DNA of 64,000 nt from Trichormus sp. ATA11-4-KO1 (lineage in GTDB: Bacteria > Cyanobacteriota > Cyanobacteriia > Cyanobacteriales > Nostocaceae), in the NCBI GenBank assembly GCA_019358915.1, contig JAHHIM010000020.1, positions 1-64,000 on the forward strand, given 5' to 3'. Position 1 is the stretch's first letter. The number at the start of each line of letters is the position of its first letter. Position numbers and translations under genes: made by a program. Shown piece by piece: positions 1,346 to 58,883 of this stretch. The notes under the pieces are model-generated. The model ran no database searches and had not been told where the DNA came from. It saw nothing but the letters and a program-made list of their open reading frames with translations.

Positions 1346-4300
1346 GTGAACACAAAAATGAGTAATTTTTCTCATACTTTTCTTGAACCTTCTAGCAACT
1401 TTTCTACATTTGTCGATGTACTGCGCTTCAGAAGTTCTACGCAGCCAAACCGAGATGCTTTTACCTTCTTGCTGGATGGGGAGACAGAACAAGCAACATT
1501 AACCTATCAAGAATTGGATAGGCGATCGCGTCGCATAGCTGCTCAATTACAAAAATTAGGTTTGACTGGAGAACGAGCCTTACTACTTTATCCAGCCGGA
1601 CTAGATTTTTTAGTGGCTTTTTGTGGTTGTTTGTATGCGGGAGTTGTGGCTGTAACTGCATATCCCCCGCGAAATCAGCGCAATACACCACGAATCAAAG
1701 CTATTGCCACAGATGCACAAGCAGCGATCGCGCTGACGACAACAGAAATTCTGCCGACAGTGCGGTCTTTAATGACGGAAAAGACTGACATAAAATCTTT
1801 ACAGTGGCTAGCTACTGATAATCTTGCAGAGGGCATAGAAGACAGTTGGCAAGAACCCGCTATTCATCGAGATACCTTAGCTTTTCTGCAATACACCTCT
1901 GGCTCTACAGGCACACCCAAGGGTGTAATGATTAGTCATGGCAACTTACTACATAATGCTGATACAACTTATCAATTCATGGAGCATTCTCCAGAAAGTA
2001 AGTTTGTCACATGGTTACCCATGTATCACGATATGGGTCTGATTGGAGGAATCTTGCAACCTTTTTATGGAGGTTTTCCTTGTATAATTATGCCTCCGAC
2101 TTCCTTTCTTCAACGTCCTTATCGTTGGTTGCAAGCTATCTCTCAGTACAAAGGCACAACCAGTGGTGGGCCTAACTTTGCCTATGATTTATGTACTCAC
2201 AAAATTACTGCTGAACAAAAAGCAACTCTTGATTTGAGTAGTTGGAATGTTGCATTTAATGGTGCTGAACCTGTTCGTCACGACACTTTAGAACGGTTTG
2301 CCGCAGCTTTTGCAGAGTGTGGCTTTCAAAAAGAGGCTTTCTATCCTTGTTATGGCATGGCGGAAACAACTCTTATGGTTTCTGGCGTACAGAAGGCAAC
2401 AGCACCGAGAATTAAAACAGTTGAAAAGTCTGCATTAGAATTTAATCGAGTAGTTGAATTATCTGCTAACGATGAGGATGTATACCATTTTGTCAGTTGT
2501 GGTCGCATCATCCCAGAACAAAAAGTAGTTATTGCCAATCCAGAAACACTCAGTAGTTGCAAACCTGGTGAAATTGGGGAAATTTGGGTATCTGGGCCGA
2601 GTGTTGGTCAAGGTTATTGGCATCGCCCAGAGGAAACAGCAGAAATATTCCGTGCCTATCTGCAAGATACAGGAGAAGGGCCTTTTTTACGCACGGGTGA
2701 CTTAGGCTTTCTGCACAACGACGAAGTTTTTATTACAGGTAGAGCCAAAGATTTAATTATTATTCGCGGCCGCAATCTTTACCCCCAAGATATAGAATTG
2801 ACCGCAGAACGCAGTCATCCATCATTACGTCCTGGTGCTGGGGCTGCATTTACAGTAGAGATTAACAACGCAGAAAGATTAGTAGTTGTACAAGAATTAG
2901 AGTTTCGCGCCAAGTCAAATTTAGAAGCAGTTATTTCAGCTATTCGCCAAGCAATTACTGAAGAGCATGAAGTACAAGTTTATGCAGCTGTCTTGATTAA
3001 ACCAGGTAGTATCCCCAAAACTTCTAGTGGTAAGATTCAGCGACGTGCTACTCGCACTCAATTTCAAAATGGCGAACTGAATGTAGTTACAAGTAACACT
3101 CTCAAAATTAGTGATATTGCCAGAAAAGAAACTCGTTTACAACGTGCTGAACTTTTGGCGCTTTCCCCACGGGAATGTCAACCAATTCTCGAAACATATC
3201 TGATTGAACTCTTGGCAAGAGTCTTTTCAATCACACCAGATGATATTAATCCTCAAGAACCATTAAGTACGATGGGACTTGACTCATTAAAAGCATTTGA
3301 AATCAAAAATCGCATTGAAGTTGACTTAGAAGTAGAAGTATCTGTAGCAGACTTTTTTGAAGGGATGAGTGTACGCTCGCTTGTCACCAAGATTCTCGCT
3401 CAAATGACAACAAACGCGCTACCGTCTCTATCCCTGACTCAACAACAGATAAATACATCTATTTATCCTCTCTCTTTTACCCAGCAGGGCTTGTGGTTTA
3501 TCAATCAGCTAACTCCCAATACTTCTACATATAACATTCCTATAGTTATTAGCCTCCAAGGTCAGGTTAATTTAACAATTTTACAAGACAGTCTCAACGA
3601 AATTATCAAACGACACGAAGTCTTACGCACAAGTTTTACAGTAGTAGACGGACAACCCGTCCAAGTAATTAATCAAGCTGTACCCTTAACTTTGGCGGTT
3701 GAAGATTTACGTGTACTGGCTGAAAGCGATCGCAATCTTACAGCACAACATTTGATTAATGAGTTAGCACAGGAGCCTTTTGACTTATCTGCTCCATCAC
3801 TTTTACGTGCCCAAGTTTTACAATTAAGTGATAAAAATTATCATTTAATTGTCACTCTACATCATACAATTGCAGATGGTTGGTCTATAGGAGTTTTGCT
3901 CAGAGAACTAGCTGCACTGTATGAAGCATTTTCTGTTGGTAAACTCTCCCCATTGCCTGAATTACCCATTCAGTACAGAGATTTTGTCAACTGGCAACGC
4001 CAATCAATTAATTCCCAAAGGATTCAATCTTTACTGACCTATTGGCAGCAAAAGTTGCAGGGTGAACTTCCTGTATTAAACTTACCAACAGATCGTCCGC
4101 GATCGCCTGTGCAAACCTTCAAAGGTAGTCGAGCGAAATTAGTTCTTTCTCCCACTCTGAGAAAAGAACTGAAAAATTTCAGCCGTCAGCAGGGAGTAAC
4201 TTTATTTATGACCTTGCTCACAGCCTTCAAAATCTTGCTATATCGCTACACAGGTCAAACAGATATTGTAGTTGGTTCACCAATAGCCAATCGAAATAGA

Positions 4301-6706
4301 GCAGAAATCGAATCATTAATAGGATTATTTGTCAATGTTTTAGCACTGCGAACAGACTTATCTGGTGACCTTAGTTTTCAGGAGTTGTTAGCGCGGGTGA
4401 AATTAACAGCTTTAGAAGCGTATGTTCACCAAGACTTACCTTTTGAGAAGTTAGTAGAGGAATTACAGCCAAACAGGGATCTGAGCTACAATCCCCTATT
4501 TCAAGTAATGTTCGTACTGCAAAACGTTCCCAAACCTCATGTCAGTCTTACGGATGTATCAATTACCTATGAAGAAGCTGAAAATGGCACGTCTAAGTTT
4601 GATTTGACATTGTTTATGGATGATTCGGAGGAAAGTTTAGTTGCAACTTGCGAGTACAACACGGATTTATTTAATGCAGATACTATTAACCGAATGCTGG
4701 GACATTTCCAGACATTGTTAGAAAGCATAGTTAGCGATCCCCAACAATGTATTTCACAGGTGCAAATATTAACGCCATTTGAAGAAAAACAGTTATTAAT
4801 TGATTGGAATGATACTGAAACAGATTATCCTCAAGATAAATGCATTCATCAGTTGTTTGAGGAACAAGTAGAGAAAACGCCAGATGCTGTTGCAGTCGTT
4901 TTTGAGAATCAAGAATTAACTTATCGGGAGTTGAATAATCGAGCCAATCAACTAGCGCACTACTTACAAAAATTGGGTGTTAAGCCAGAGATGCTGGTTG
5001 GTATTTGCATGGAGCGATCGCTAGAAATGGTAGTTGCAGTATTAAGTATTTTAAAAGCTGGTGGAGCTTACTTACCATTAGATCCTGCATATCCCCAAGA
5101 GCGTTTAGCCTTCATCTTAGAAGATACTCAAAGTCCAATACTGCTAACTCAAAAGAGGTTTATAGAGAAATTGCCAACTGATGGTATTAAGGTAGTTTGT
5201 CTAGATTCACATGGGGATGGAATGGCTTCCGAGTTGTCAGAAAACCTTATTTGTAAGACAAATTCTACTAATCTAGCTTATGTCATTTACACCTCTGGCT
5301 CCACTGGTAAGCCTAAAGGAACGTTAATTCCGCATCAAGGATTACTCAATTACTTAACTTGGTGTACTCAGTCATATCCCATTGAGCAAGGTAAAGGAAC
5401 TATTGTTCACTCATCTCTTGCTTTTGATTTAACCATCACAGGTCTATTTTCACCTTTATTAGTTGGGCGACAAGTAGAACTAATTCCTGAAGACCAAAGT
5501 ATCGAATCTTTAGGAAACAAACTGCGCCAAGAGTCAAACTTGAGTCTTGTTAAAATTACACCAGCCGAATTACTATTACTTTCTCAGCAATTATCACCAC
5601 AAGAAGCAGCAGGTATTACCAAAGCTTTCATCATTGGCGGAGAGAACCTCTTAGCTGAGAACATTACCTTCTGGAAAACCTTTGCACCCGAAACATTATT
5701 AGTAAATGAATATGGCCCGACAGAAACTGTCGTAGGCTGTTGTGTTTATCGAGTCCCCCAGGATGATATTGAGTCAAATTCTGTTTTGATTGGTCAGCCA
5801 ATCGCTAATACACAATTATATGTCTTAGACCAACACTACCAGCCAGTACCTATAGGAGTTCCAGGCGAACTATATATTGGTGGTGCAGGTTTAGCACGGG
5901 GTTATCTGAATCAACCAGAACTGACATCTGTGAAATTCATTCCCCATCCCTTTAGTCATGAACCAGGAACGCGATTATACAAAACCGGGGACTTGGCTCG
6001 TTATTGTGCAGATGGCAATTTAGAGTTTTTAGGACGAATTGACCATCAAGTCAAAGTGCGCGGTTACCGAATTGAACTAGGAGAAATTGAGAGTTTACTG
6101 GGACAACACCCAGAAATTCAAGCAGCCGTGGTAATGATGCGGGAGGATGAACCAAATAATCAGCGTTTAGTGGCTTATTTTGTTAGCAACACCCAGACAC
6201 CACCTAAAACTAGCAATCTCCGTAAATTTCTTAAACAACAGCTACCAGAATACATGCTACCTTCGGTGTTCGTACAGCTAAAGGCGCTGCCGTTAACAAC
6301 GAATGGCAAAATAGATCGTCGAGCATTGCCAGTACCAGATAGCGATCGCCCAGAGTTAGCAGAGGTTTATGTAGCTCCTCGTTCTGAAATAGAAAGGGCG
6401 ATCGCCCGCATTTGGCAAGAAGTGTTGCATCTAGATAAAGTAGGTATTCATGATAACTTCTTTGATCTTGGGGGACATTCACTACTAATGCTGCAAGTAA
6501 ATCATCAACTGCGGGCAATTTTGCAGCAAGACATAACAGTAGTAACGATGTTTCAAAATCCAACTATATATTCACTCGCACAATATTTAAGTCAAAAACA
6601 AAAACCTTCTTTTACAGGAACACGCGATCGCGCGAATAGACAAATTGAGGCTATCAATCGCCAAAAACAATTATTAAGCAAACAAGGTAAAAATATTTAT
6701 GGTTAG
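1346..6706 (+). CDS. NRPS loading protein: FAAL-ACP-C-A(Asn)-PCP
   Basis: FAAL motifs (FLQYTSGSTGTPKG, WLPMYHDMGLIG, CYGMAE); ACP GLDSL; C HHTIADG; A-domain code read as DLTKIGEVGK (Asn); PCP GGHSL. Start may be ATG 1358. Confidence 0.93.
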   Translation: MNTKMSNFSHTFLEPSSNFSTFVDVLRFRSSTQPNRDAFTFLLDGETEQATLTYQELDRRSRRIAAQLQKLGLTGERALLLYPAGLDFLVAFCGCLYAGVVAVTAYPPRNQRNTPRIKAIATDAQAAIALTTTEILPTVRSLMTEKTDIKSLQWLATDNLAEGIEDSWQEPAIHRDTLAFLQYTSGSTGTPKGVMISHGNLLHNADTTYQFMEHSPESKFVTWLPMYHDMGLIGGILQPFYGGFPCIIMPPTSFLQRPYRWLQAISQYKGTTSGGPNFAYDLCTHKITAEQKATLDLSSWNVAFNGAEPVRHDTLERFAAAFAECGFQKEAFYPCYGMAETTLMVSGVQKATAPRIKTVEKSALEFNRVVELSANDEDVYHFVSCGRIIPEQKVVIANPETLSSCKPGEIGEIWVSGPSVGQGYWHRPEETAEIFRAYLQDTGEGPFLRTGDLGFLHNDEVFITGRAKDLIIIRGRNLYPQDIELTAERSHPSLRPGAGAAFTVEINNAERLVVVQELEFRAKSNLEAVISAIRQAITEEHEVQVYAAVLIKPGSIPKTSSGKIQRRATRTQFQNGELNVVTSNTLKISDIARKETRLQRAELLALSPRECQPILETYLIELLARVFSITPDDINPQEPLSTMGLDSLKAFEIKNRIEVDLEVEVSVADFFEGMSVRSLVTKILAQMTTNALPSLSLTQQQINTSIYPLSFTQQGLWFINQLTPNTSTYNIPIVISLQGQVNLTILQDSLNEIIKRHEVLRTSFTVVDGQPVQVINQAVPLTLAVEDLRVLAESDRNLTAQHLINELAQEPFDLSAPSLLRAQVLQLSDKNYHLIVTLHHTIADGWSIGVLLRELAALYEAFSVGKLSPLPELPIQYRDFVNWQRQSINSQRIQSLLTYWQQKLQGELPVLNLPTDRPRSPVQTFKGSRAKLVLSPTLRKELKNFSRQQGVTLFMTLLTAFKILLYRYTGQTDIVVGSPIANRNRAEIESLIGLFVNVLALRTDLSGDLSFQELLARVKLTALEAYVHQDLPFEKLVEELQPNRDLSYNPLFQVMFVLQNVPKPHVSLTDVSITYEEAENGTSKFDLTLFMDDSEESLVATCEYNTDLFNADTINRMLGHFQTLLESIVSDPQQCISQVQILTPFEEKQLLIDWNDTETDYPQDKCIHQLFEEQVEKTPDAVAVVFENQELTYRELNNRANQLAHYLQKLGVKPEMLVGICMERSLEMVVAVLSILKAGGAYLPLDPAYPQERLAFILEDTQSPILLTQKRFIEKLPTDGIKVVCLDSHGDGMASELSENLICKTNSTNLAYVIYTSGSTGKPKGTLIPHQGLLNYLTWCTQSYPIEQGKGTIVHSSLAFDLTITGLFSPLLVGRQVELIPEDQSIESLGNKLRQESNLSLVKITPAELLLLSQQLSPQEAAGITKAFIIGGENLLAENITFWKTFAPETLLVNEYGPTETVVGCCVYRVPQDDIESNSVLIGQPIANTQLYVLDQHYQPVPIGVPGELYIGGAGLARGYLNQPELTSVKFIPHPFSHEPGTRLYKTGDLARYCADGNLEFLGRIDHQVKVRGYRIELGEIESLLGQHPEIQAAVVMMREDEPNNQRLVAYFVSNTQTPPKTSNLRKFLKQQLPEYMLPSVFVQLKALPLTTNGKIDRRALPVPDSDRPELAEVYVAPRSEIERAIARIWQEVLHLDKVGIHDNFFDLGGHSLLMLQVNHQLRAILQQDITVVTMFQNPTIYSLAQYLSQKQKPSFTGTRDRANRQIEAINRQKQLLSKQGKNIYG

Positions 6707-9700
6707 CACTACATATAATAATTCCCTAGAAGGCATCGCCATAGTAGGGATGGCGGGGCGTTTCCCCAGTGCTAAAAATCTAGAAGAATTTTGGCAGAAT
6801 TTACAAAATGGGATAGAGTTGATTTCCATCTTCACAGACGAAGAGGTGATATCCGATGGCATAAATCCAGCAATTCTGAGCGATCGCAGTTATGTAAAAG
6901 CTAGTGCTGTATTAGAAAATATCGATTTATTTGATGCGGCATTTTTTAATTTTAATCCCAAAGAAGCAGAAGTTACTGACCCGCAACACCGTTTCTTCTT
7001 AGAGTGTGCTTGGGAAGCATTAGAAAACGCTGGCTATGATACCACCAGATATACAAGTCGCATTGGAGTTTATGCTGGTGCTAGTTTCAATAACTATTAT
7101 TCTTTTGATTTAAACCGCGATCGCCTGGGTTCAGCCCAATGCTATCAAACGCTAATTGGTAACGATAAAGATTTCCTGACAACTCGTGTTTCTTATAAAT
7201 TAAATCTTACCGGCCCAAGCATTACAGTCCAAACAGCTTGCTCTACGTCATTAGTTGCAACCACACTTGCTTGCCAAAGTTTGTTGAACTATCAATGTGA
7301 TATGGCTTTGGCTGGTGGAGTTTCTATTCACGTTCCCCAAAAATCAGGTTATTTGTACGAACAGGGGGGAACACTTTCTCCTGATGGTCATTGTCGTGCT
7401 TTTGATGCCAAAGCCCAAGGAACAACCATTGGTAATGGTGTGGGAGTTGTTGTTCTCAAGCGATTAAGCGACGCTTTAGCAGATGGTGATTGCATTCATG
7501 CTGTAATTAAAGGTGCAGCTATCAATAATGATGGTTCTGGTAAAGTAGGCTACACAGCCCCTAGCGTGAATGGTCAAGCGGAAGTTATTGCTGAAGCGAT
7601 GATGCTGGCGGGAGTTGAGCCTGAGACAATTAGCTATATTGAAGCTCATGGTACTGGTACAGCTTTAGGCGATCCCATTGAAATTGCTGCACTCTCTCAA
7701 GTCTTTCGTAGTAGTACTAACCAAAAAGGCTTTTGTGCTATTGGTTCAGTAAAGACAAATATCGGTCATTTAGATGCAGCAGCTGGGATTACCGGATTAA
7801 TTAAAACAGTTTTAGCCCTGAAACACAAGCAAATACCACCAAGCTTGAATTTTGAGCAACCCAATCCTCAGATTGATTTTGCCAATAGCCCTTTTTATGT
7901 CAATACAAAATTGACAGAATGGAAAACTAATGGTGTTCCTCGTCGGGCTGGTGTGAGTTCTTTAGGTATTGGTGGGACTAATGCTCATGTGATTGTAGAA
8001 GAAGCACCAGTACAAGTCAAAAGTCAAAAGTCAAAAGGCAAAAGTAAATATCTACTGTGTCTATCGGCTAAAACTGATTCAGCCTTGGAGACAGCAACAG
8101 CTAATTTAGCTAATCACCTCCAGCTACATCCAGAACTAGACTTAGCGGATGTTGCCTATACATTGCAAGTAGGGCGTGCTGAATTTAATCATCGACGTGT
8201 ACTAGTATGCCAAGATACAGAAGATGCCGCTAATGCCTTGCAGTTGCCAGATCATCACAGAATTTTGACGCGTTGCGTTGACAGTGGCGATCACTCCATA
8301 GTCTTCATGTTCCCTGGACAGGGCGCTCAGTATGTAGATATGGGTAAAGAACTTTACCAAACTGAGCCGATTTTTCAAGAACAAATCGATTTGTGCTGTG
8401 AATTGCTGCAACCTCATCTGGGGTTAGATTTGCGTTCTGTTATTTATCCCACTGAGTCTGAGTTACAAGCCGCAGCAGAAAAACTCCAACAAACTGCCAT
8501 TACCCAGCCTGCATTGTTTGTAGTTGAATATGCGTTAGCTAAGTTGTGGATGTCTTGGGGAATTTCTCCTAGCACCATGATTGGTCATAGCATTGGCGAA
8601 TATGTTGCAGCTTGTCTTGCTGGTGTATTTTCCTTGGAGGATGCTTTGGCTCTGGTTGCTATCCGTGGGCGATTGATGCAACAACTTCCAGTCGGTGCTA
8701 TGCTCTCGGTTGCAAAATCAGCCGCAGAGATGAAAAACTTACTCAATGAAAATTTATCTTTAGCCGCCAGTAATGCTCCTGCTTTGTGCGTCGTTTCCGG
8801 AACTCATGCAGCTATAGACACAATTCATCAGCAACTCACAGCATTAGATGTAGAGTGTCGCCGTCTGCGTACCTCTCATGCCTTTCATTCGGAGATGATG
8901 GAACCTATCATGGAGCCATTCATTAAAGAAGTTAAAAAAGTTAAACTCAATCCTCCTCAGATTCCCTTGATCTCTAACGTCACTGGTACTTGGATCACAG
9001 CAGAACAAGCTACAAATCCACATTACTGGGGAACACATTTACGGCAAACAGTAGAGTTTACCGCAGGTATATCTACATTGTTGCAAGAACCCAATCGCAT
9101 CCTCCTAGAAGTTGGGCCAGGGCGCAGTTTGTGTACTTTGGCTCAAAAGCATTCCGACGTTGTAGGGCTGTGTTCATTACGACATCCCCAGGAAAAACAA
9201 TCAGATGTAGCATTTTTACTGACTACACTAGGTAAACTCTGGTTATACGGAGTACAAATCGAATGGTCAGGATTTTATCTTAACGAGCACCGTTATCGTC
9301 TTCCTTTACCGACCTATCCCTTCGAGCGCCAGCGTTATTGGATTGAAGACCGTAAACAATCAGAAAAGAGTACTAAAACCACATCATTGGGTAAAAATTC
9401 AGACATTACAGACTGGTTTTATCTACCTTTGTGGAAACAGTCGCTACCTCCAAGAGAACACCCAGAACTAACCGTACAAAAATCTAGCACTTTAGTTTTT
9501 ACTAATGAGTTGAGCATCAGTTCCCAATTAGTACAACAACTAAAAACACATCATCAAGATGTCATTCTGGTGAAAATAAGTTCAAAGTTTGCCAAGTTGA
9601 GTGAGCATGAATATAGCCTCAATCCTCAACAAAGTAGTGACTACGAGCTTTTGTGGCGAGAACTACAAGCACAAAATAATTTACCCACCAAAATTGTGCA

Positions 9701-17206: not shown

Positions 17207-17226
17207 GTTAGTTCAGGATAAAAATC

Positions 17227-19612: not shown

Positions 19613-19616
19613 AAAC

Positions 19617-28140: not shown

Positions 28141-28186
28141 ATTGACATCCGTTCACACTTCAAAAAAACACTTATCAGGAGAAAAT

Positions 28187-46251: not shown

Positions 46252-47142
46252 ATGATTACTTCATCTTCAATAATTGACAAACACTACAAACTTTCACATC
46301 AAGAATTTATTTCAAGTTATGTAAAGCCAGCAAAACCAGTCATCATTTCTGGATTAATTGAAAATTGGGATGCTTTTGGTAAATGGTCATTAGATTTTTT
46401 GCAAGAAAGTGCCCCAGAAATTAATATTTGTGCTAAGGAGTTTACTAACGGCACCATAAAAACTAACAATTTTACACTCAAAGAGTATACAAAAATCATT
46501 AAAGAATTTGAAATAAAAAACAAATATCATGAAAATGTTGCATCACCTCCTTATTGCCATGATATTCCTCTGTTTAGCTTAGTTCCTCATCTCATTAGAG
46601 ATGTTCAATTTCCCACAAATTATTTACCAAAATGGTATACAGAAAAATGGTGGCGCTATTGTCAATTTTTTATAGGAGCATCTAATAGCCTAACTCCATT
46701 ACATTTTGATTGTCTTTTAACAAATAATCTTTTTTTCCAAATTGTTGGACGCAAAAAATTTACTATACTCACATATGAGGACAAAAAATATTGTTATCGA
46801 TATGATTGGCGATGGTTTAAGGTCAATCCAGAGAATCCTGATTTTGATAAGTATCCAAAATATAAAAATGCTAGACCAATTGAAATTATTGTAAATCCTG
46901 GCGATATTTTATATATGCCTCCTGGTACTTTGCATCATGTAAGAAGTTTAGATATGTCAATTTCTTTTAATATTGATTGGCATACCAACAGCAGCGTAAT
47001 TAATAGTTTAACAGCTTGTTTAAAAGGGATGCCAATGCAAAACGTTTATTATAATTTTTTATTAACATTAGGCTTGGTTTTTCAAGTACCTCCTCAAATA
47101 ATTTTTAAATTTTACAAAACTTATCTAAATTATATTTCCTAA
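46252..47142 (+). CDS. JmjC/cupin_8-family Fe(II)/2OG oxygenase
   Basis: KPVIISGLIENW; TPLHFD (HxD); QIVGRKKF; PGDILYMPPGTLHHV. Confidence 0.85.
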   Translation: MITSSSIIDKHYKLSHQEFISSYVKPAKPVIISGLIENWDAFGKWSLDFLQESAPEINICAKEFTNGTIKTNNFTLKEYTKIIKEFEIKNKYHENVASPPYCHDIPLFSLVPHLIRDVQFPTNYLPKWYTEKWWRYCQFFIGASNSLTPLHFDCLLTNNLFFQIVGRKKFTILTYEDKKYCYRYDWRWFKVNPENPDFDKYPKYKNARPIEIIVNPGDILYMPPGTLHHVRSLDMSISFNIDWHTNSSVINSLTACLKGMPMQNVYYNFLLTLGLVFQVPPQIIFKFYKTYLNYIS

Positions 47143-50200: not shown

Positions 50201-52421
50201 ACATGAAGCTTTGCGAACGAGTTTTCCGGCCGCAGATGGTCAACCAATTTGTGCGATCGCCCCAGCTTTGACCTTAGAACTACCTGTGGTAGAGTTGCAA
50301 GTATTGTCGGCAAATCAGCGAGAAGCAGAGGTGTTGCAGCTAGCTCAACAAGAAGCAGCACAACCGTTTGATTTAGCCCAGTCACCTTTGTTGCGAGCAA
50401 AATTGTTGAAGTTAGACGCAGCAGAGTATGTTTTACTCCTGACAATACACCATATTATTTTTGATGGCTGGTCTAGTGGGGTACTTAACCAAGAAATAGT
50501 CACACTTTACGAAGCTTTTTCTTCTGGAAAGCCTTCACCCTTGGCAGAACTTTCTATCCAATATGCTGATTTTGCTTACTGGCAGCGACAATGGTTGCAA
50601 GGTAAAACACTAGAAACCCAACTGTCCTACTGGCAAAAACAGTTAGCAGGTGCTTCTACAAGTTTGGATCTACACAAAATAGCCAGCAACTTCTCATCTA
50701 CTGTCAAAATAGAGGCTACAGAGGCATCCTTCTTACTTTCCCCTGAGCTATCCGAACAAATCAAAAAACTCAGCCGCCAAGAGGGAGTCACACTGTTTAT
50801 GACCCTACTGGCAATTTTTCAAATACTTTTATATCGCTACACAAATCAGGATGACATTATAGTTGGCACTGATGTCGCCAACCGCAATCGAGCCGAAATT
50901 GAACCACTAATCGGTTTCTTTGTCAACTTGCTGGTTTTACGCACCGACTTATCTGGCAACCCTAGTTTTCAAGAACTGCTAGGGCGGGTGCGTGAAGTCA
51001 CTTTGGGGGCTTATGCCCACCAAGACTTACCTTTTGCCAAGTTAGTAGAAGAATTACGTCCAGATAGAAATTCTAGTGCCACACCACTATTTCAGGTGTT
51101 ATTTGTTCTGCAAAATGTTCCTATGCCTACTGTAGAACTTTCAGACCTCACCCTCGCACCGATGGAGATTGATAACGGTCTAGCAAAGTTTGATTTAGCT
51201 TTATTTTTGGCAGAAACACCATCAGGAATTGTGGGGACTTGGAAGTATAATACCGATTTATTTAATGCTGCTACTATTACTCGCATCTCAGAGCATTTTG
51301 CCATTTTATTGCAGAGTATTGTTGCTCAACCTGATGCCAGAATTAACACTTTAGAAATGCTAACTGAAGTTGAAAAGAAACAACAAATGATGGAACAAGC
51401 AAAACAAGAACAAAGCAAACTGAAAAAGTTTATGCAGGTTAAGCCTAAGGCGATGAAGTTGCCACAGGGACAACTAATCACCACCGATTATCTACAGCCT
51501 GGTGAAACACTTCCCCTCGTGATTAAACCTGCTGTTGAGCAAATTGATCTGATTGACTGGGTGAAAAGTCACAAAGAATTAATTGAATCAAAATTGTTAT
51601 CTCATGGTGCTTTGCTGTTTAGAGGTTTTAATATTGATTCACCATCAGCATTTGAGAATTTAGCACAAGCTATTTGTCCACAGTTGTTTGGTGAGTATGG
51701 CGATTTACCACGCGAGGGAATAGGCGGGAAAGTTTACGGTTCTACCCCATATCCATCAGACCAAGCTATTTTATTTCACAACGAAAGTTCACATCTACAC
51801 TGCTGGCCTTTAAAAATTTGGTTTTTCTGCTTGCAAAGTCCTCAAGTTGGTGGCGAAACACCTATAGTGGATTGTCGCAAAGTATATCAGTTACTTGATC
51901 CGAAGTTGCGATCGCACTTTGAACAAAAGCAATTAATGTATGTTCGTAACTACATTCAAGGTTTGGATGTCAGCTGGCAAGAATTTTTCCATACAAGCGA
52001 TCGCACAGTAGTTAAAAAATACTGTCATCAAGCTAAGATTGATTTTGAGTGGAAGGAAGAGGATCATTTTTTGACTCGGCAAGTACGGCCTGCTATAACC
52101 AAGCATCCTCAAACTGGTGAGTTAATCTTTTTCAACCAAATTCAGCTGCATCATGTATCTTGCTTAGAACCAGCCGTCAAAGACTCTTTGTTATCAACTT
52201 TTGGCGCAGAAAAACTGCCCCGAAATGTTTATTATGGCGATGGTTCTCCTATTGAAGATGCTGTAGTCGAGGAAATTTGCTCAGTTTACGAGCAAGCCAA
52301 AGTGAGTTTTCCTTGGCAGCAAGGTGATGTGTTAATGCTGGATAATATGCTGACTGCACATGGTCGTAACCCTTATGTGGGGCCACGTAAAATTTTGGTG
52401 GCTATGGGTGAAATGCACTAA
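47295..52421 (+). CDS. NRPS: truncated C-A(Dab-like)-PCP-C-TauD (fused beta-hydroxylase)
   Basis: YWVNQLSGELP near the start; code DIWEMVADDK; PCP GGHSL; C HHIIFDG; C-terminal GSTPYP, LFHNESSH, DNMLTAHGR. Confidence 0.9.
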   Translation: MTINQQIQDLITPEELFSQKFYWVNQLSGELPESNFITDFIRPAIYRGKNKSVEFNLPDKLSASLIKFTNHSYLSIYLLLVSALGILLRKYTGSNDVIIGSPTYQNAEINENTSNKILPLRLYVDSQVTFKDFLLHVKEKMVSAYSHQDYNFDELVSLLEIPKTPNRCPIFDIAILLENIHEYININNDVTFAFKVTGNSIQGQVKYVDSLFQETTIKTIIKYYLNILEAIISDCYTQIVDISFLKAEDEYKILSAFNNNLQAGYPLNQTINQLFEQQVEQTPNRIAAVFGNLELTYQELNQKANQLARFLQNLGVKQREFVGILKERDINFLIGILAIYKAGGAYVPIDSTYPSDRIKYMVYNSEVKILLTDSSCLNILINLQKDCPHLQFLVCSDIKPQVANFNQLINIDIYDQRDFKNLPQENLEIINVASDPAYMLYTSGSTGLPKGAIVRHDGAINHIYAQFDALELNEDFCFLQSAAASTDISVWQFLAPLLIGGKTVIVDIESGFVPEKLFKVLQEQRITVVELVPAVFGGLIDYISQLLPHQRLLLDLKWMMVVGEPVSVQRLNQWLRIYPSIKVADAYGPTEAADDITQYIVEKPLPESQRTVPIGKPLANLNIYILDPKLNLLPIGVPGEICVAGIGVGNGYWKNEEKTNLSFVANPFPHTTKLLPETYRDLIYKTGDLGRWLPDGNIEFLGRIDHQVKIRGFRVELGEIEALLAKHPAIREAVVILREDIPGEKRLVAYMIVSSDQIPTNDPAVSSELILELRNSLKERLPDYMIPSAFLLLEAFPLSPSGKIDRKALPVPDWSQRNLAQSYIAPRTPTEEMIAGIWSQVLGVEQVGVDDNFFDLGGHSLLATLVVSQLRNVFHIELPLRNIFDFPTVVTLAKSVEIMKQSQEHLQSPPIVPIPRNGKEPLSFAQQRLWFIDQLEPNNPAYNHFNAVRITGALNIVALKQSLNEIIRRHEALRTSFPAADGQPICAIAPALTLELPVVELQVLSANQREAEVLQLAQQEAAQPFDLAQSPLLRAKLLKLDAAEYVLLLTIHHIIFDGWSSGVLNQEIVTLYEAFSSGKPSPLAELSIQYADFAYWQRQWLQGKTLETQLSYWQKQLAGASTSLDLHKIASNFSSTVKIEATEASFLLSPELSEQIKKLSRQEGVTLFMTLLAIFQILLYRYTNQDDIIVGTDVANRNRAEIEPLIGFFVNLLVLRTDLSGNPSFQELLGRVREVTLGAYAHQDLPFAKLVEELRPDRNSSATPLFQVLFVLQNVPMPTVELSDLTLAPMEIDNGLAKFDLALFLAETPSGIVGTWKYNTDLFNAATITRISEHFAILLQSIVAQPDARINTLEMLTEVEKKQQMMEQAKQEQSKLKKFMQVKPKAMKLPQGQLITTDYLQPGETLPLVIKPAVEQIDLIDWVKSHKELIESKLLSHGALLFRGFNIDSPSAFENLAQAICPQLFGEYGDLPREGIGGKVYGSTPYPSDQAILFHNESSHLHCWPLKIWFFCLQSPQVGGETPIVDCRKVYQLLDPKLRSHFEQKQLMYVRNYIQGLDVSWQEFFHTSDRTVVKKYCHQAKIDFEWKEEDHFLTRQVRPAITKHPQTGELIFFNQIQLHHVSCLEPAVKDSLLSTFGAEKLPRNVYYGDGSPIEDAVVEEICSVYEQAKVSFPWQQGDVLMLDNMLTAHGRNPYVGPRKILVAMGEMH

Positions 52422-52832: not shown

Positions 52833-55800
52833 ATGCAAGCTGAAACAATTGAGGGCTTTCGACTCTCTCCACAGCAAAAAAGTTTGTGGTTACTCCAACA
52901 AGATAGTGATGTTTATCGCGCCCAATGTAGCATTTTAATTGCAGGCAAAATTAAAATAGAAGTTCTGCAAGCAGCCTTACAGCAAATTATCAATCAGCAT
53001 GAAATTTTCCGGACTACATTTCATCGTCGTCCTGGCATAAAATTTCCTATTCAAGTAATAGCAGATAGTTGTAATATATCCTGGAATAATATCAATCTCA
53101 GTGATTTAGCTGGGCAGGAACAACAAAATAAAATTGCAGAATTATTGCAGCAAGAGAAGTCTTATGTTTGTCAATTTGAGCAAAGTCCATTATTACGTTC
53201 TTGCCTGTTAACTTTATCAGAACAACAGTATCTTTTAATATTGACTTTGCCGTCATTGTGTGCAGATAGCTGGACAATCAAAAATTTAGTCAAAGAAATC
53301 AGCGATAATTATGCTGCACATTTAGATGGTAAAGAAATACCAGAGCCAGGAGTACAGTACATTCAATTTTCTGAATGGCAGAATGAACTGATAGAAGCAG
53401 AAGAAGCAGAAACAGGAAAAAATTACTGGCAAGGACAAAATTTCGTCAACCAAATTCCTCATATACTGCCTTTCGAGAGTAAGTTTATCGACACATTTGA
53501 GACTGATTGTTACTCTATCAATATAGATTCCAGTTTAGTGAAAAAGCTGGAAGCGATCGCTACTATAAATAAAACTACAATTAGTGAATTATTACTAGCT
53601 TGTTGGCAAATATTATTCTACAGAATATTAAAACAATCAGATATTTTTGTAAGTACTGTTTTTCATGGCAGAAACTACGAAGAACTACATACAATAATGG
53701 GTCTATTAGCTAAATGGCTACCAATTCGTTGTAGTTTTCAAGATAATTTTAAATTTAAGGAAATTTTATCGCAAACGAGCGAAACTCTACGCAATCACCA
53801 TCAATACCAGGAATATTTTATTGGTGAAGAAGAAACAGAAACAACCGCCAAATTGCCAATAAGCTTTGAGTTTGAGGAACATCCAAGCACTTATTACAGC
53901 GATGGGGTTTCGTTTTCTCTTCATCAGCAGTATGTCTGTTTTGATAGATTCAAAATCAAGCTTTCCTGCATACGTACAGAAGCTTATTTATGTGCAGAAT
54001 TTCATTACGATACTAATTTATTTGTACAAGCAGATATTGCCAGATTAGCAGAACAATTTCTGACTTTAGTAGCAAGTGTAGCTAACAATATAGAGTCTAC
54101 AGTTAGTGAGTTAGAAATTCTCAGCGATCGCCAACGACAACAATTATTAATTGATTTCAATCAAACTCATATTAATCATCCAAAAGATAAGTGTATTCAT
54201 CATCTGTTTGAAGCACAGGTAGAGCAAACACCACACAACATTGCTGTTGTATTTCAAGAAGAACAACTAACATATATTGAACTGAATAATCGCGCCAACC
54301 AATTAGCTCACTACCTACAAAAATTAGGAGTTGATACAGAAACACTAGTAGGTATTTATTTAGAGCGATCGCACCTCAACATTATTGCTCTTTTAGCTAT
54401 TCTCAAAGCTGGTGCAGCTTACGTACCACTAGATCCAGCATTACCACCAGAAGCTTTAGAATTTCGGTTACAGGATGTGCAAGCGTCAGTTTTATTAACC
54501 CAAGATTCACTAGTTCAACAACTTTCGGAAACTGCTGTACAAGTCATTTGCTTAGATAAAAACTGGGAAGTAATTACCCAAGAAAATCAAAGTAATCCTC
54601 AAACTTTGGTAAAACCAGAAAATTTAGTTTATGCTATTTTCACCTCTGGTTCTACAGGTAAACCCAAAGCAGTTGGCGTTGAACATCAGCAACTCCTCAA
54701 TTACTTATACGGTGTTGTAGATAGACTCGACTTGCCAAAAGGCGGAAGCTTCGCTACTGTTTCCACATTTGCGGCTGACTTGGGTAACACAGTCATCTTC
54801 GCAGCGTTGTGTCACGGTGGATGTCTGCATATCTTATCTCAAGAGCAAGCATCAGATCCCCAAGCACTAGCAGATTACTTCCAACAGCATCCCATCGACT
54901 GCTTAAAGATTGTTCCCTCTCACTTAGCTGCTTTAATAGCATCCTCTCCTCCTCAGACTCTCCTCCCTCGTCAGTGTCTAATTTTGGGTGGAGAAGTCAG
55001 CAGTTGGGATTTAATTGAGAAAATTCAAGCACAAGCACCAAAATGTCAGATTTTTAACCATTATGGCCCGACAGAAACAACTGTAGGAGTGCTAACTTAC
55101 CCAGTTTACAGCCGAAAATATAGCCATAATTCACACACAGTACCTCTGGGTAAACCCTTAGCTAATACCCAAGTTTACGTACTAGACACACAGCTACGTC
55201 CCGTACCCATAGGCGTACCAGGCGAACTTTATATTGGTGGCGCGTCACTCAGTAGAGGTTACCTCAATCGACCGGAACTAACAACCGAGAGGTTTATTCA
55301 AAATCCTTTCATACCCGAAGCAAAATTATACAAAACCGGAGACTTAGTACGTTACTTGCCAGATGGAAATCTAGAATTTCTCGGAAGAAGTGACAACCAA
55401 GTGAAAATTCGTGGCTTCCGTATTGAATTAGGGGAAATTGAAGCTACCTTGAGACAGCATCCTAGTGTACAGGAAGTTGTAGTCCTAGCAACACAGGAAA
55501 AACTTGGTGATCAGCGTTTAGTAGCGTATATAGTTGTCAATTCTCCATCAGGACTCACCAACCAAAAACTTGAATCTGCACTCCCAGGGGAACTACGCAA
55601 TTTCTGTTTGCAAAAGCTAACTGAGTATATGTTACCTTCAGCTTTTGTTTTCTTGAAAACACTGCCATTAACACCCAATGGTAAGATAGACCGTCAAGCC
55701 TTGCTAGCCATTGAACACACTCGTCCTCAGCTAGCACAGACTTATGTAGCACCACGTACTCCCACAGAAAAGCAGTTGGCTGAGATTTGGATAAATCTCT

Positions 55801-57188
55801 TGAATTTGACACAAGTTGGTATTCATGATAACTTCTTTGAATTAGGTGGACATTCCCTACTAATCACTCAGTTACTTGCCAAAGTCCGCAACACTTTTCA
55901 CGTAGATATACCTTTACGAGAATTTTTTAATGCAGCTACTATTGCTGATTTAGCTCAAAGCATTGACAACAAACAGGAAGTTAATTGCACCAATATTGAT
56001 CTCAATGCTGAAGCTGTTTTAGACCCAGAAATTCGTCCTGTAGGAAGTCCAGTAGATTACAGCGAAGTAAATTTCATTTTCTTAACAGGTGCAACTGGGT
56101 TTTTAGGAGTATTTTTACTTTACGAACTACTACAACAAACATCAGCAAAGATTTATTGTCTGGTGCGTGCTAACACAACTGTAGATGGTAAAAATAGGCT
56201 GCAAAACAGCTTACAATCTTACTTACTTTGGGATGAAAGTTTTAGCGATCGCATGATTCCCGTCATGGGAGATTTATCTCAACCGCGATTGGGATTGTCA
56301 GAGTCAGAGTTTAGCAATTTCGCCAGCCAAATAGATGTCATCTATCATAATGGTGCATTTGTCAACTTTACATACCCATATTCCCAACTCAAAGTAGCCA
56401 ACGTCTTAGGCACTCAAGAAGTATTAAGATTAGCGGCTCAAGTTAAAGTTAAGCCAGTACATTTTATTTCCACTATTGGTGTAGTTGGTGCAGCTGATTC
56501 CCAACTAGAAATAATTCGCGAAGATACCCCGAATAATCGCAGTGAAAATATCAAAAGTGGTTATACCCAGAGTAAATGGGTAGCCGAAAAATTAGTCAAA
56601 ATAGCAGGCGATCGCGGTATTCCCATTTCTATTTACAGACCAGGCCGCATTTCTGGACATTCAGTTACGGGTGTTTGCAACGTCAATGATCACACCTTCA
56701 GAATGATTAAAGGCTGTATTCAACTTGGTAGTGCGCCTCTTAATGACTCAATGGTGAATTTAACTCCCATTGATTATGCTAGCAAAGCAATTATTTATTT
56801 ATCTCGGCAAAAAGCATCCTTAGGCAAAGTGTTTCATATTATTAATCCTCAGCCTCAACCTTGGAATGAAATGATTAATATCATTGCTGATTTTGGTTAT
56901 GCACTCAAGCCAATTGCCTATGAAAAATGGCGCTTAGAACTACTACAAGCAGTCGAGCGATCGCCTGATAATGCTTTGTCTCCTTTAATTGGCACCTTTA
57001 CTGATAGCGAAACACCAAAAAGCAATGCAGAGGAGTCATCACCATCCCAATTAGATTATGAAAATACTCTCACTGGATTAGCAGAAACTGCAATTAATTG
57101 TCCACCAGTAAATGCCAAATTACTAAATACTTATTTCTCTTACTTAATTGACAGTGGCTTTTTAAATGCTCCACAGTTAATTATTTAG
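52833..57188 (+). CDS. Terminal NRPS: interface-like degenerate C-A(Asp)-PCP-thioester reductase (R)
   Basis: GFRLSPQQ; LPSLCAD; code DLTKIGHVGK; PCP GGHSL; R domain FLTGATGFLG, GYTQSKWVAE (YxxxK), YRPGRISG. Confidence 0.92.
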   Translation: MQAETIEGFRLSPQQKSLWLLQQDSDVYRAQCSILIAGKIKIEVLQAALQQIINQHEIFRTTFHRRPGIKFPIQVIADSCNISWNNINLSDLAGQEQQNKIAELLQQEKSYVCQFEQSPLLRSCLLTLSEQQYLLILTLPSLCADSWTIKNLVKEISDNYAAHLDGKEIPEPGVQYIQFSEWQNELIEAEEAETGKNYWQGQNFVNQIPHILPFESKFIDTFETDCYSINIDSSLVKKLEAIATINKTTISELLLACWQILFYRILKQSDIFVSTVFHGRNYEELHTIMGLLAKWLPIRCSFQDNFKFKEILSQTSETLRNHHQYQEYFIGEEETETTAKLPISFEFEEHPSTYYSDGVSFSLHQQYVCFDRFKIKLSCIRTEAYLCAEFHYDTNLFVQADIARLAEQFLTLVASVANNIESTVSELEILSDRQRQQLLIDFNQTHINHPKDKCIHHLFEAQVEQTPHNIAVVFQEEQLTYIELNNRANQLAHYLQKLGVDTETLVGIYLERSHLNIIALLAILKAGAAYVPLDPALPPEALEFRLQDVQASVLLTQDSLVQQLSETAVQVICLDKNWEVITQENQSNPQTLVKPENLVYAIFTSGSTGKPKAVGVEHQQLLNYLYGVVDRLDLPKGGSFATVSTFAADLGNTVIFAALCHGGCLHILSQEQASDPQALADYFQQHPIDCLKIVPSHLAALIASSPPQTLLPRQCLILGGEVSSWDLIEKIQAQAPKCQIFNHYGPTETTVGVLTYPVYSRKYSHNSHTVPLGKPLANTQVYVLDTQLRPVPIGVPGELYIGGASLSRGYLNRPELTTERFIQNPFIPEAKLYKTGDLVRYLPDGNLEFLGRSDNQVKIRGFRIELGEIEATLRQHPSVQEVVVLATQEKLGDQRLVAYIVVNSPSGLTNQKLESALPGELRNFCLQKLTEYMLPSAFVFLKTLPLTPNGKIDRQALLAIEHTRPQLAQTYVAPRTPTEKQLAEIWINLLNLTQVGIHDNFFELGGHSLLITQLLAKVRNTFHVDIPLREFFNAATIADLAQSIDNKQEVNCTNIDLNAEAVLDPEIRPVGSPVDYSEVNFIFLTGATGFLGVFLLYELLQQTSAKIYCLVRANTTVDGKNRLQNSLQSYLLWDESFSDRMIPVMGDLSQPRLGLSESEFSNFASQIDVIYHNGAFVNFTYPYSQLKVANVLGTQEVLRLAAQVKVKPVHFISTIGVVGAADSQLEIIREDTPNNRSENIKSGYTQSKWVAEKLVKIAGDRGIPISIYRPGRISGHSVTGVCNVNDHTFRMIKGCIQLGSAPLNDSMVNLTPIDYASKAIIYLSRQKASLGKVFHIINPQPQPWNEMINIIADFGYALKPIAYEKWRLELLQAVERSPDNALSPLIGTFTDSETPKSNAEESSPSQLDYENTLTGLAETAINCPPVNAKLLNTYFSYLIDSGFLNAPQLII

Positions 57189-57248
57189 AGCTTGACAGTA
57201 AATCATACCAATAAACAAACCACAGAGGCACAGAGAGCGCAAAGAAGA

Positions 57249-58463
57249 ATGAAAGAAAATATCAGAATGACTATACCAGGTCGAGTTACAGCCGCAGGAA
57301 CACGGCGTTACAGGGAAAAACATCAAAAGTATTGTGCATCCAATTTTTTTTATGCAGCTGGTGAACTGATTACCAGTTCTATTGGCATTGGGACGCTAAT
57401 TAATCAAATGGATGAGCAAACCGACCAACTGATGACGCAAGCGATCGCAGAATCAGTACGGTGCGGAGTAAACTTAATTGACACCTCAATTAGTTATGGC
57501 TACCAGCAAGCAGAACGTAGTATAGGAAAAGCTATCTATAATCTTCTTGAATCGGGAGAGGTATCCAGAGATGAACTGATTATCTGTACCAAAGGTGGAG
57601 TCATACCGCATCCAGAGAACAACCTAGCCGACTGGTTTCAGCACCACTATGTTGAGCCAAGTAACTGTAGAATCAACATGACAGATATCGCGGCATCACG
57701 TTACTGCATACACCCAGAATACCTGCAAGATCAGCTCAACCGCAGCCTCAAAAATCTCGGACTCCAAACCATCGATGTTTACTACATCCATAATCCCGAA
57801 AGACAGCTATTAGAAATTGCGCCTGATATTTTCTACAGTAAGTTACGCGCAGCTTTTGAGGTCATGGAAGATGCCGTAGATGCTGGAAAAATAGCTGCTT
57901 ATGGTCTAGCAACTTGGGAAGGTTTTCGTGTACCTCCAACTTCCCGCGAGCATTTAGATTTAGCAAAAATTAAGTCTATTGCTCAGGAAGTAGCTGGAAA
58001 TAAACAAGACCGATTCCGGTTCATCCAATTTCCCTTGAACATGGTAATGCTAGAAGCACTTCTGTCACCAACTCAGCAAATTGCCGGACAAAAAGTTCCC
58101 ATCTTAGAAGCTGCTTATCGTTTAGGCATGATTCCCGTAGCCAGTAATTCTATTTATCAAGGACAAATCGCTGGTAAAATTCCCGAACACATCGCTACTG
58201 CTTTGAGTGACAAACTGTGGACTGACTGTCAACGCGCACTCCAATACACCCGCAGCACTCCTGGTATTGCTACTGCTCTTGTGGGAATGAAAGGTATAAA
58301 ACATATAGAAGAAAACTTAGCTTTGAAAACTATTTCATCACTTGAGATAAATAACTTTCAGGCAGTTACACATGCAATTGTTCAAGTGTTAAAAAGTATG
58401 CAAATCGATGATACTTCTTGGACATTTGATTTATCTAAGCTATCTTATTCTAAAAACAATTAA
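57249..58463 (+). CDS. Aldo/keto reductase
   Basis: SSIGIGT; IDTSISY, CTKGG and YIHNPE give the Asp/Tyr/Lys/His tetrad. Start uncertain (57192 TTG, 57249 ATG or 57267 ATG). Confidence 0.85.
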   Translation: MKENIRMTIPGRVTAAGTRRYREKHQKYCASNFFYAAGELITSSIGIGTLINQMDEQTDQLMTQAIAESVRCGVNLIDTSISYGYQQAERSIGKAIYNLLESGEVSRDELIICTKGGVIPHPENNLADWFQHHYVEPSNCRINMTDIAASRYCIHPEYLQDQLNRSLKNLGLQTIDVYYIHNPERQLLEIAPDIFYSKLRAAFEVMEDAVDAGKIAAYGLATWEGFRVPPTSREHLDLAKIKSIAQEVAGNKQDRFRFIQFPLNMVMLEALLSPTQQIAGQKVPILEAAYRLGMIPVASNSIYQGQIAGKIPEHIATALSDKLWTDCQRALQYTRSTPGIATALVGMKGIKHIEENLALKTISSLEINNFQAVTHAIVQVLKSMQIDDTSWTFDLSKLSYSKNN

Positions 58464-58652: not shown

Positions 58653-58883
58653 ATGTATCAAGACGACAAAGAAGATACCACGATTTACAAAGTTGTAGTC
58701 AATCACGAAGAGCAGTATTCCATCTGGCCTGCTGAGCGAGAAAATGCACTCGGCTGGCGGGATGCAGGCAAAAGTGGACTGAAGGCAGAATGTCTTGAGT
58801 ACATCAAGCAAGTCTGGACTGATATGAGACCACTAAGTTTAAGGAAGAAGATGGAAGAAACCACCCGCAGTCAGACTCACTAA
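58653..58883 (+). CDS. mbtH: MbtH-like protein
   Basis: [40 protein letters not shown] upstream. Confidence 0.95.

Follow-up and report, generated by a model that had tools for sequence, protein, structure and literature searches.

A candidate cyanochelin-like siderophore cluster with a putative hydroxymalonyl module in Trichormus sp. ATA11-4-KO1

Cyanobacterial siderophore structures number 24 by the count in bioRxiv 10.64898/2026.07.24.740629, and the cyanochelins are the closest described systems to the gene cluster that we analyzed here, 21 genes (g1 to g21) at positions 1346-58883 of the first 64 kb (the window) of contig C20 in the 5.97-Mb assembly of Trichormus sp. ATA11-4-KO1. Cyanochelins A and C share the ending beta-OH-Asp-Gly-DHABA, and the thioester reductase (R) domain of the cyanochelin C line reduces beta-OH-Asp to the alcohol DHABA (bioRxiv 10.64898/2026.07.24.740629). 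The release of cyanochelin B is also reductive (PMC12628792); the R product is DHABA in A and C and ethanolamine in B. All three described cyanochelins bear an azoline or azole (oxazol(in)e or thiazol(in)e) at the N-terminus, which a Cy domain forms. The cyanochelin B line has a flavin monooxygenase domain, and its product further contains a 2-hydroxy-2-methyl carbon; the hydroxyl on this carbon was proposed to form the third ligand together with the thiazoline nitrogen (PMC12628792).

Overall, the comparisons below suggest that the Trichormus cluster makes an undescribed cyanochelin-like siderophore, and we put the probability of a siderophore role at about 0.78. The predicted product carries two blocks that are unreported in the described cyanochelins, a hydroxymalonyl-derived tertiary alcohol and a hydroxylated diaminobutyrate (Dab). 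If this is true, the predicted masses show concretely where to look for a new cyanobacterial siderophore, hydroxymalonyl chemistry, described for antibiotics, is tied to iron capture, and a testable rule emerges in which one pocket residue predicts 3-hydroxy-Dab in about a hundred clusters of the family.

All 21 open reading frames lie on the + strand, with gaps of -77 to 411 nt and zero internal stops. Pfam and NCBIfam scans (Table 1) placed ten extension modules, seven of nonribosomal peptide synthetase (NRPS) and three of polyketide synthase (PKS) type, after fatty acyl-AMP ligase (FAAL) loading and before the terminal reductase. These counts confirmed those of an initial annotation made from the sequence letters, which had called the line complete, a word that holds for the biosynthetic core only: the contig begins 1345 nt upstream of g1, and apart from the NicO/DsbD-like gene described at the end, no transporter gene was found in the 64-kb window. 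The split genes are not frameshift artefacts, as the same splits are present in four relatives (G130, G105, G192 and G371; G numbers denote related genomes). Catalytic motifs are intact in the KS domains (TTCSSS in g12), the acyltransferase (AT) domains, two ketoreductase (KR) domains, the epimerization (E) domain, both TauD domains, JmjC, R and the aldo-keto reductase (AKR). In module order, the adenylation (A) domain codes read from alignments are DLTKIGEVGK, DLFNNALTYK, DIWEMSADDK, DILQLGMIWK, DLTKIGHVGK, DIWEMVADDK and DLTKIGHVGK. Under the ten-residue numbering rule that we assumed, and with DLTKIGEVGK presumably standing for Asn, the predicted substrates Asn, D-Ala, Dab, Gly, Asp, Dab and Asp hold, and the codes and module order supported the colinear residue order proposed in the initial annotation.

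The cyanochelin-type terminus

The 3' part of the cluster encodes a C domain, TauD and interface-A(Asp)-T, and further on C-TauD and interface-A(Asp)-T-R. Cyanochelin C has the same layout, a split C/TauD/interface-Asp module without E, then C-TauD and an Asp-T-R that leads to DHABA; the C domain of g13 with g14 and g15, then g16-g18, and finally g19 follow it, with a diamino acid replacing Gly. Each of the two Asp modules has an Fe/2OG beta-hydroxylase and an interface-type C domain, acylation is primed by FAAL (g1), and the line ends in a thioester reductase (g19 R) with intact motifs. The two Asp codes (DLTKIGHVGK) are identical in the cyanochelin B Asp modules, whereas the cyanochelin B Gly modules read DILQLGLIWK against DILQLGMIWK here. 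Of the two cyanochelin B hydroxylases, the stand-alone one resembles the g14 protein more (54.8%, against 49.4% for the fused one), and the fused one resembles the TauD domain of g18 more (63.4%, against 48.0% for the stand-alone enzyme); domain identities to the cyanochelin B line are 40-63%. In antiSMASH, the NRP-metallophore rule for such hydroxylases is CyanoBH_Asp1/2 (PMC12971057).

The cyanochelin C cluster of Myxacorys spp., compared from its published description and not its sequence (bioRxiv 10.64898/2026.07.24.740629), shares an FAAL fused to NRPS, an E-less split beta-OH-Asp module, X-T-C-TauD, a terminal Asp-T-R, a monomer-supplying transaminase, an acylase and a transporter cassette. 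It differs in having no PKS or hydroxymalonyl part, Gly between the two Asp where our cluster has (OH-)Dab, a methyloxazoline (Cy) and an acylase within the cluster. Cyanochelin B, encoded on plasmid AP017310.1 of Leptolyngbya sp. NIES-3755 (PMC12628792), shares FAAL, a PKS with a C-methyltransferase, one stand-alone and one fused Asp hydroxylase, the identical Asp codes, R release to an alcohol and the 2-hydroxy-2-methyl carbon. It has a divergent TonB cassette where our contig ends in a receptor-type leader, and it differs in its flavin monooxygenase domain, the lack of an FkbH cassette, a thiazoline, R acting on Gly and the absence of Dab.

Reductive release and paired beta-OH-Asp are not new in our cluster, because they already occur in the described cyanochelins. 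The initial annotation had proposed a nostocyclopeptide-like release as an aldehyde. In nostocyclopeptide-type release, which needs a free N-terminal amine and a C-terminal aldehyde that is retained, the aldehyde closes a macrocyclic imine; here the N-terminus is acylated during assembly and an AKR follows R, and such closure might occur once the acyl chain is gone. Since the paired beta-OH-Asp modules end in A(Asp)-T-R like those of cyanochelins A and C, we replaced that proposal with a cyanochelin-like release, probably to the alcohol. In eight other R-ended lines, the gene after R encodes an AKR in two (G001, G181) and is aminotransferase-like in six (G073, G130, G371, G016, G002, G192), from which we infer alcohol and amine products, respectively. 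LgrE of gramicidin and MxcL of myxochelin are precedents for alcohol versus amine formation after R. Neither type of gene is listed after R in the cyanochelin B cluster, and a narrow literature query found no precedent for an AKR following R. A D-configuration at g15, considered from the DCL-type g16, was rejected, as 36 of 104 such C domains follow an E-less module.

The proposed hydroxymalonyl and diaminobutyrate modules

The AT motif of g3 reads GYSLG, compared with GHSIG in g2 and g12. In the zwittermicin A hydroxymalonyl-ACP pathway, GYS marks the ATs for extenders tethered to an acyl carrier protein (ACP), with GYSFG in ZmaA (hydroxymalonyl-ACP) and GYSLG in ZmaF (PMC4207774). Our cluster shares with that pathway the Tyr in the AT GHSxG motif and genes for FkbH, an ACP, a 3-hydroxyacyl-CoA dehydrogenase and an acyl-CoA dehydrogenase; it differs in that the extender is followed by a methyltransferase (MT) and a dead KR, and no aminomalonyl genes were seen. 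In the fetched DNA, 21 of 138 KS-AT modules carry GYS(I/L)G and 20 of the 21 lie in DNA with FkbH, the remaining one having FkbH about 17 kb away; this co-occurrence is not an unbiased test, since several loci were picked by FkbH. Both the four-gene cassette and the GYS motif speak for the hydroxymalonyl unit proposed in the initial annotation.

The g3 MT matched the CurJ C-methyltransferase best in the PDB (E 3.5e-48) and keeps the catalytic His and Glu, with the motif before the His altered (FKVLH versus ANVLH in CurJ); the position reads FQVLH in three relatives. Its named homologs, at 62-82% identity, come from Scytonema, Nodularia, Calothrix, Cyanocohniella and Nostoc (five of six loci), which makes a heterocyst-forming host likely. 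No stand-alone O-methyltransferase was found in the cluster, and no genome-wide search for an FkbG homolog was made. The initial annotation had rendered the module as a ketide with MT; the MT stood, and a KR is also present, with a broken nucleotide-binding motif (GGLEDIG). Among 12 GYS-plus-MT modules, the KR glycine is changed to Glu in eight, the KR is absent in two and it is kept in two. Taken together, these features lead us to lean towards a 2-hydroxy-2-methyl-3-oxo unit as the g3 product, with which the O-methylation product (2-methoxy-3-oxo) is isobaric. A GYS-type AT, an MT and a dead KR tied to a hydroxymalonyl cassette appear to be new within the literature searched. No paper on hydroxymalonyl in cyanobacteria or Nostoc was found, and among the papers listed for hydroxymalonyl and siderophores no title shows such a product. 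A link to leptochelin was rejected, as the available text of PMC11240249 mentions neither FkbH nor hydroxymalonyl.

The g3 KS (window 11336-12650) has variant His motifs (HGTAT, NISHL) and retains the catalytic Cys and both His. In the same-genus genome G001 (L031-L033, G001:C22:125000-165205), the cassette lies beside a g3 remnant and adjoins a different, cyclisation-domain-rich cluster, which has its own GYS-MT-KR module; the G001 cassette likely serves another line.

The A domains of g11 and g18 share the pocket D-x-W-E-x-x-A-D-D with SulM A3 (PDB 9N1U), which binds diaminopropionate (Dap) for a monobactam; the SulM paper reports no other known cluster with such a pocket (PMC12042044). Code position 6 is N2411 in SulM, Ser in g11 and Val in g18, and exchanging N2411 for Thr gave higher activity on a C3-methyl substrate (PMC12042044). 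SulM A3 activates Dap, whereas a transaminase gene, g10, is adjacent here, and Dab is the likely substrate because g10 passes the Dab-transaminase cut-offs. Fetching 106 of 121 other transaminase places gave, with two from the window, a set of 105 half-C-A modules. Of the 65 modules with Val at position 6, 64 have a g17-type JmjC gene between the C domain and themselves, and the single exception has the gene elsewhere in the same cluster; of the 40 modules with Ser, Thr or Gly, two have the gene at that place. On a quick-method tree of 100 of these 105 domains (five without the anchor motif were dropped), the JmjC/pocket state changes 6-7 times. The g17 gene sits between g16 and g18, and the ortholog position in G130 has a T-type pocket and no such gene. 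The best PDB match of g17 was JMJD5, annotated as an arginyl hydroxylase, and an atlas search matched solely unnamed Cupin_8 clusters. Outside the family, among 400 genomes of the order, one cyanobacterial g17 match is located between a C domain and the transaminase. Because of the JmjC-Val link, the role of SulM position 6 and the placements outside the family, 3-hydroxy-Dab at module 9 is likely, and the Dab(OH) marked with a query in the initial annotation gained comparative support from this survey. A narrow query found no literature precedent for a cupin Dab hydroxylase.

The second His of HHxxxDG is absent in 48 of 104 C domains ahead of Dab modules (one alignment was dropped), in 0 of 20 other DCL-type domains and in one of three ahead of half-C modules whose code was unread; several kinds of residue replace it. 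The side-chain amine of Dab may stand in for the lost His, or linkage may proceed via the gamma-amine. No precedent for His-less C domains with Dab was found by a narrow literature query.

Several further loci touch on these modules. Plasmid NZ_AP027144.1 of Methylocystis iwaonis (L172:3843-20909) carries an acylase, a cyclic-peptide exporter, a Dab transaminase, MbtH, a g17-type JmjC gene and an FAAL-NRPS with a DIWELCADDK module. Five Rhizobium plasmids hold g17 homologs at 43-48%; the one inspected, on plasmid b of Rhizobium tropici CIAT 899 (L171:9908-10849), is isolated among insertion sequences and was uninformative. Small SAM-methyltransferase-like genes (about 254 aa, motif-based) lie inside the Dab cassette at L122, L123, L128, L163 and L167, which suggests N-methyl-Dab variants. 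A very common cluster type of the family (L011-L027, L090-L118) reads interface-A(Asn)-T, KS-AT-KR-T(-E), C, JmjC, transaminase, half-C-A(DIWEMVADDK)-T and KS-AT-KR-T, and a PLP decarboxylase (about 550 aa) comes next, still within the PKS line; PKS modules of this type often have an E domain fused to them.

The FkbH cassette, Dab transaminase and TauD are parts common in the family: among 389 family genomes, this one counted, strong matches occur in 112 genomes for the transaminase, 107 for FkbH and 221 for TauD. An identical cluster was not found in relatives, the best of the 389 genomes reaching 90% for the transaminase, 90% for FkbH and 83% for TauD, each in a different genome; the listing for TauD covers the best 150 of 449 places, and several co-located candidates, among them G225, G013, G255, G090, G194 and G306, were not inspected in full. 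Among 60 relatives, g19 reaches 94% in G001 and then 59%. The clusters are mosaics, with no relative best for every gene. The 5' block of FAAL-NRPS, PKS, GYS-MT-PKS and cassette recurs in G073, G105, G181, G192, G196, G204 and G253; the 3' block is near-colinear with that of G130, which is without the JmjC gene; and G001 keeps the 3' end at 93-95%, with g3 reduced to a remnant beside the cassette. Neither the present module order nor the JmjC gene together with beta-OH-Asp modules and a GYS-MT module was found in any of 17 inspected relatives, which were chosen from best hits.

The initial annotation had recognized no characterized cyanobacterial compound with this combination. The same order was found neither in the 17 related clusters nor in the literature searched; the 5' block, Dab, a pair of beta-OH-Asp modules and R also occur together, differently ordered, in G073 and G181, so we call the combination uncharacterised rather than unique. 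Our literature searches, whose scope excluded most subscription papers, Galica 2021 and MIBiG, found no report of a hydroxymalonyl/methyl module, of ketide-extended Dab or of JmjC-linked OH-Dab. As far as these searches reach, three features are new: the GYS-AT/MT/dead-KR module, the JmjC gene that tracks a Dab pocket residue, and the His-less C domains ahead of Dab modules. Galica 2021 reportedly lists 31 cyanochelin-like clusters, which may include a near relative or this cluster.

Proposed uptake and product, and competing readings

Positions 1-195 of the window align at 69-78% to DNA that precedes the start of a divergent TonB-receptor gene, by about 20-60 nt, in G130, G181, G209 and G293. 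Among sequencing runs, a single DNA run, which may be the source itself, and no RNA run was listed as containing the sequence. An 853-nt Logan contig of double depth extends past position 1; because C20 breaks in this double-depth segment and the assembly has no contig <10 kb, the 5' part of the receptor gene may be missing. Contig C62 ends in the C-half of a receptor (13026-14474), 64-66% identical to the receptors that neighbor the G192 and G073 clusters. FecB and three ABC genes come after it, and one of the ABC genes is 87.7% identical to a cluster-adjacent gene of G181. A link between C20 and C62 by contig-end overlap was rejected, as there is no overlap. Of the 17 related clusters, 12 have a TonB receptor within the fetched DNA, in 10 cases immediately upstream of the FAAL gene, and eight carry an acylase. 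The single penicillin-amidase-family acylase of this genome (C36:20257-22356, beside DevBCA) is 85-87% identical to cluster-adjacent acylases of G181 and G105, and the cyanochelin C authors credit deacylation to such an acylase (bioRxiv 10.64898/2026.07.24.740629). The receptor-leader match and the close acylase homolog led us to propose a siderophore, possibly one that is deacylated. The lipopeptide of the initial annotation is borne out for acyl loading by FAAL, and the acylase encoded on another contig may remove the chain from the finished product. Upstream of related FAAL genes, 16 FurA-like sites (<=5 mismatches) were found in 11 regions, versus about 3 in shuffles. Elsewhere in the genome, one TonB-receptor gene (C9:62-1297) is cut by a 127-nt repeat end common to two other contigs, and another (C21:13508-16200) is split by a frameshift.

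We propose the following putative pathway. FAAL would load a fatty acid onto Asn, and g2 would add and reduce a malonyl unit. The products of g4-g7 would form hydroxymalonyl-ACP, which g3 would add, C-methylate and leave as the 3-ketone, giving the 2-hydroxy-2-methyl-3-oxo unit. After addition of D-Ala, Dab supplied by g10 would be extended by g12 to 4,6-diamino-3-hydroxyhexanoate, and Gly would follow. Asp hydroxylated by g14 would be L-erythro under the rule cited in the cyanochelin papers, 3-hydroxy-Dab would arise via g17, and the fused TauD would hydroxylate the last Asp before R releases it and g20 completes the reduction to the alcohol DHABA. Export, possible acyl removal by the C36 acylase and uptake by a TonB cassette likely beyond the contig end would complete the route. 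Iron would be bound by one beta-hydroxy-Asp, the terminal DHABA and, likely, the hydroxymalonyl-derived alpha-hydroxy carbonyl as the third ligand. For this structure the predicted [M+H]+ is 885.380 in the deacylated form (C32H56N10O19) and 1067.547, 1095.578 or 1123.609 with a C12, C14 or C16 acyl chain, and the predicted y-ions are 136.060, 252.119, 383.141, 440.162, 584.252 and 655.289. That every detail of this structure is right seems doubtful.

A number of observations weigh against this interpretation. No Cy domain or motif was found among the C domains of the line, and since a Cy-made heterocycle is thus not predicted, we call the cluster cyanochelin-like and do not count it among the cyanochelins proper. 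Compounds other than siderophores, such as turnercyclamycin, can contain beta-OH-Asp too (PMC12971057). The g3 AT keeps HAFH and a basic carrier motif (A-C-R), like the malonyl ATs of g2 and g12, whereas ACP-specific ATs are said to have a hydrophobic MXW carrier motif, and ZmaA combines GAAH with a hydrophobic carrier-binding motif (PMC4207774); a ranking of PDB matches was uninformative, as the malonyl AT of g2 also ranks ZmaA first. The only characterized A domain with the g11/g18 pocket type in the SulM paper takes Dap, not Dab. On the tree, the independent pairs stand at about 4-5 to 0 in the same direction (p 0.06-0.125, not significant). Both g9 and g16 are without the second His of HHxxxDG. 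The receptor is not physically linked in the assembly, the C20-C62 join being inferred, and the window has two FurA-like sites at 14/19 on a genome background of 0.19 per kb.

The strongest alternative keeps the siderophore role and changes the chemistry, and we rate it only slightly below even: the MT might O-methylate, g3 might load malonyl, the JmjC enzyme might modify both Dab residues or some different residue, or the gamma-amine might be the point of linkage of Dab. The departure from CurJ at the ANVLH motif, the retained HAFH, the two S-type Dab modules that also have a JmjC gene, and the His-less C domains, which could reflect an unusual acceptor amine, all fit this reading. Against it, the MT has a C-methyltransferase scaffold with His and Glu kept, GYS co-occurs with the hydroxymalonyl cassette, and g17 stands exactly where G130, with its T-type pocket, has no gene.

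A bolder extension of the siderophore reading would have heterocyst-forming cyanobacteria harbor a widespread unrecognised siderophore class, in which the hydroxymalonyl/C-methylation module with its dead KR builds a tertiary alpha-hydroxy ketone and the first-residue amine freed by the acylase closes on that ketone as a five-membered cyclic imine, replacing the azoline without Cy, with a JmjC Dab C3-hydroxylase paired with one pocket residue and His-less C domains using the Dab side-chain amine. We consider this unlikely as a whole. The cyclic-imine form, with a predicted [M+H]+ of 867.369, would present the same N/alpha-hydroxy iron ligand as the cyanochelin azoline.

Quite improbable, in our judgment, is that the line makes a cationic lipopeptide with an antimicrobial or allelopathic role, its beta-OH-Asp being incidental. 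The predicted product resembles zwittermicin, amicoumacin and paenilamicin in the ketide extension of Asn and Dab, the hydroxymalonyl unit and the pair of diamino acids. In five relatives (G196, G204, G209, G293, G253) the 5' half is like ours and the fetched DNA contains no beta-OH-Asp module, but four of them are still beside or around TonB receptors. The pks4 cluster of Nostoc punctiforme, a large hybrid PKS/NRPS with dehydrogenases, an aminotransferase and a dioxygenase as here, and with glycosyltransferase genes of its own, is induced by cell density (PMC7660261). However, our terminus is of the cyanochelin type, and module 1 has no E domain for a D-Asn prodrug motif. Least probable is a silent or decaying relic without a product: G001 retains just the g3 remnant, cassette and 3' end in the fetched DNA, receptor genes of this genome are damaged (the C9 repeat cut and C21 frameshift) and g9 and g16 lack a catalytic His, but all 21 frames are open at ortholog length, the His loss is a family trait and the broken KR is conserved across relatives.

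Features of the window and its flank

Table 1. Features of the window; domain order follows Pfam and NCBIfam, and C* denotes an interface-type C domain.
Feature	Position	Strand	Basis
Likely promoter/5' leader of a divergent TonB-dependent receptor gene, predicted to start just past the contig end	1..195	-	69-78% blastn
FurA-box-like site (weak)	689..707	+	14/19 matches to the Anabaena FurA consensus of PMC4005646
g1 FAAL-T-C-A(Asn)-T, acyl loading and module 1	1346..6706	+	domain scans, A code
g2 KS-AT(malonyl, GHSIG/HAFH)-KR-T, module 2	6699..11339	+	domain scans, motifs
g3 KS-AT(GYSLG)-MT-KR(degenerate)-T, module 3, likely hydroxymalonyl and methylation, 3-keto kept	11336..17206	+	motifs, comparisons
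g4 3-hydroxyacyl-CoA dehydrogenase family (putative glyceryl-ACP oxidation)	17227..18090	+	domain scans
g5 stand-alone ACP	18138..18389	+	domain scans
g6 acyl-CoA dehydrogenase family	18431..19612	+	domain scans
g7 FkbH, probable start ATG at 19617	19536..20687	+	TIGR01686 276 bits (cut-off 146.65)
g8 C-A(Ala)-T-E, module 4, D-Ala	20715..25391	+	domain scans; PDB: McyA A domain best, same pocket residues
g9 stand-alone DCL-type C, second His absent (HNLIILDG)	25412..26809	+	motif alignment
g10 diaminobutyrate-2-oxoglutarate transaminase	26809..28140	+	NF006733 615.6 bits (cut-off 438); TIGR02407 576.9 (cut-off 552.2)
g11 half-C-A(Dab, DIWEMSADDK)-T, module 5	28118..30955	+	domain scans, A code
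g12 KS-AT(malonyl)-KR-T, module 6	30979..35715	+	domain scans, motifs
g13 C-A(Gly)-T-C, module 7 and C domain of module 8	35712..40397	+	domain scans, A code
g14 stand-alone TauD-type Asp beta-hydroxylase	40413..41471	+	54.8% to cyanochelin B CcsK
g15 C*-A(Asp)-T, no E, module 8	41487..44753	+	51% to CcsL; A code as in cyanochelin B Asp modules
g16 stand-alone DCL-type C, second His absent (RHFIVLDG)	44750..46171	+	motif alignment
g17 JmjC/Cupin_8 dioxygenase, likely Dab C3-hydroxylase	46252..47142	+	domain scans, comparative data
g18 half-C-A(DIWEMVADDK)-T-C-TauD, module 9 and C/fused hydroxylase of module 10	47295..52421	+	domain scans, A code
g19 C*-A(Asp)-T-R, module 10 and reductive release	52833..57188	+	TIGR01746 369.9 bits (cut-off 213.35)
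g20 aldo-keto reductase, likely aldehyde to alcohol	57192..58463	+	domain scans
g21 MbtH-like protein	58653..58883	+	domain scan

On the 3' side of the MbtH gene, positions 59404-63532 (+) hold genes for a DUF4331 protein, a TPR protein and a NicO/DsbD-like nickel/cobalt transporter, which are probably outside the cluster because they do not stand at the equivalent place in annotated related clusters. The MbtH gene itself is flanked by short dispersed repeats (58464-58652 and 58884-59403) with many copies in the genome.

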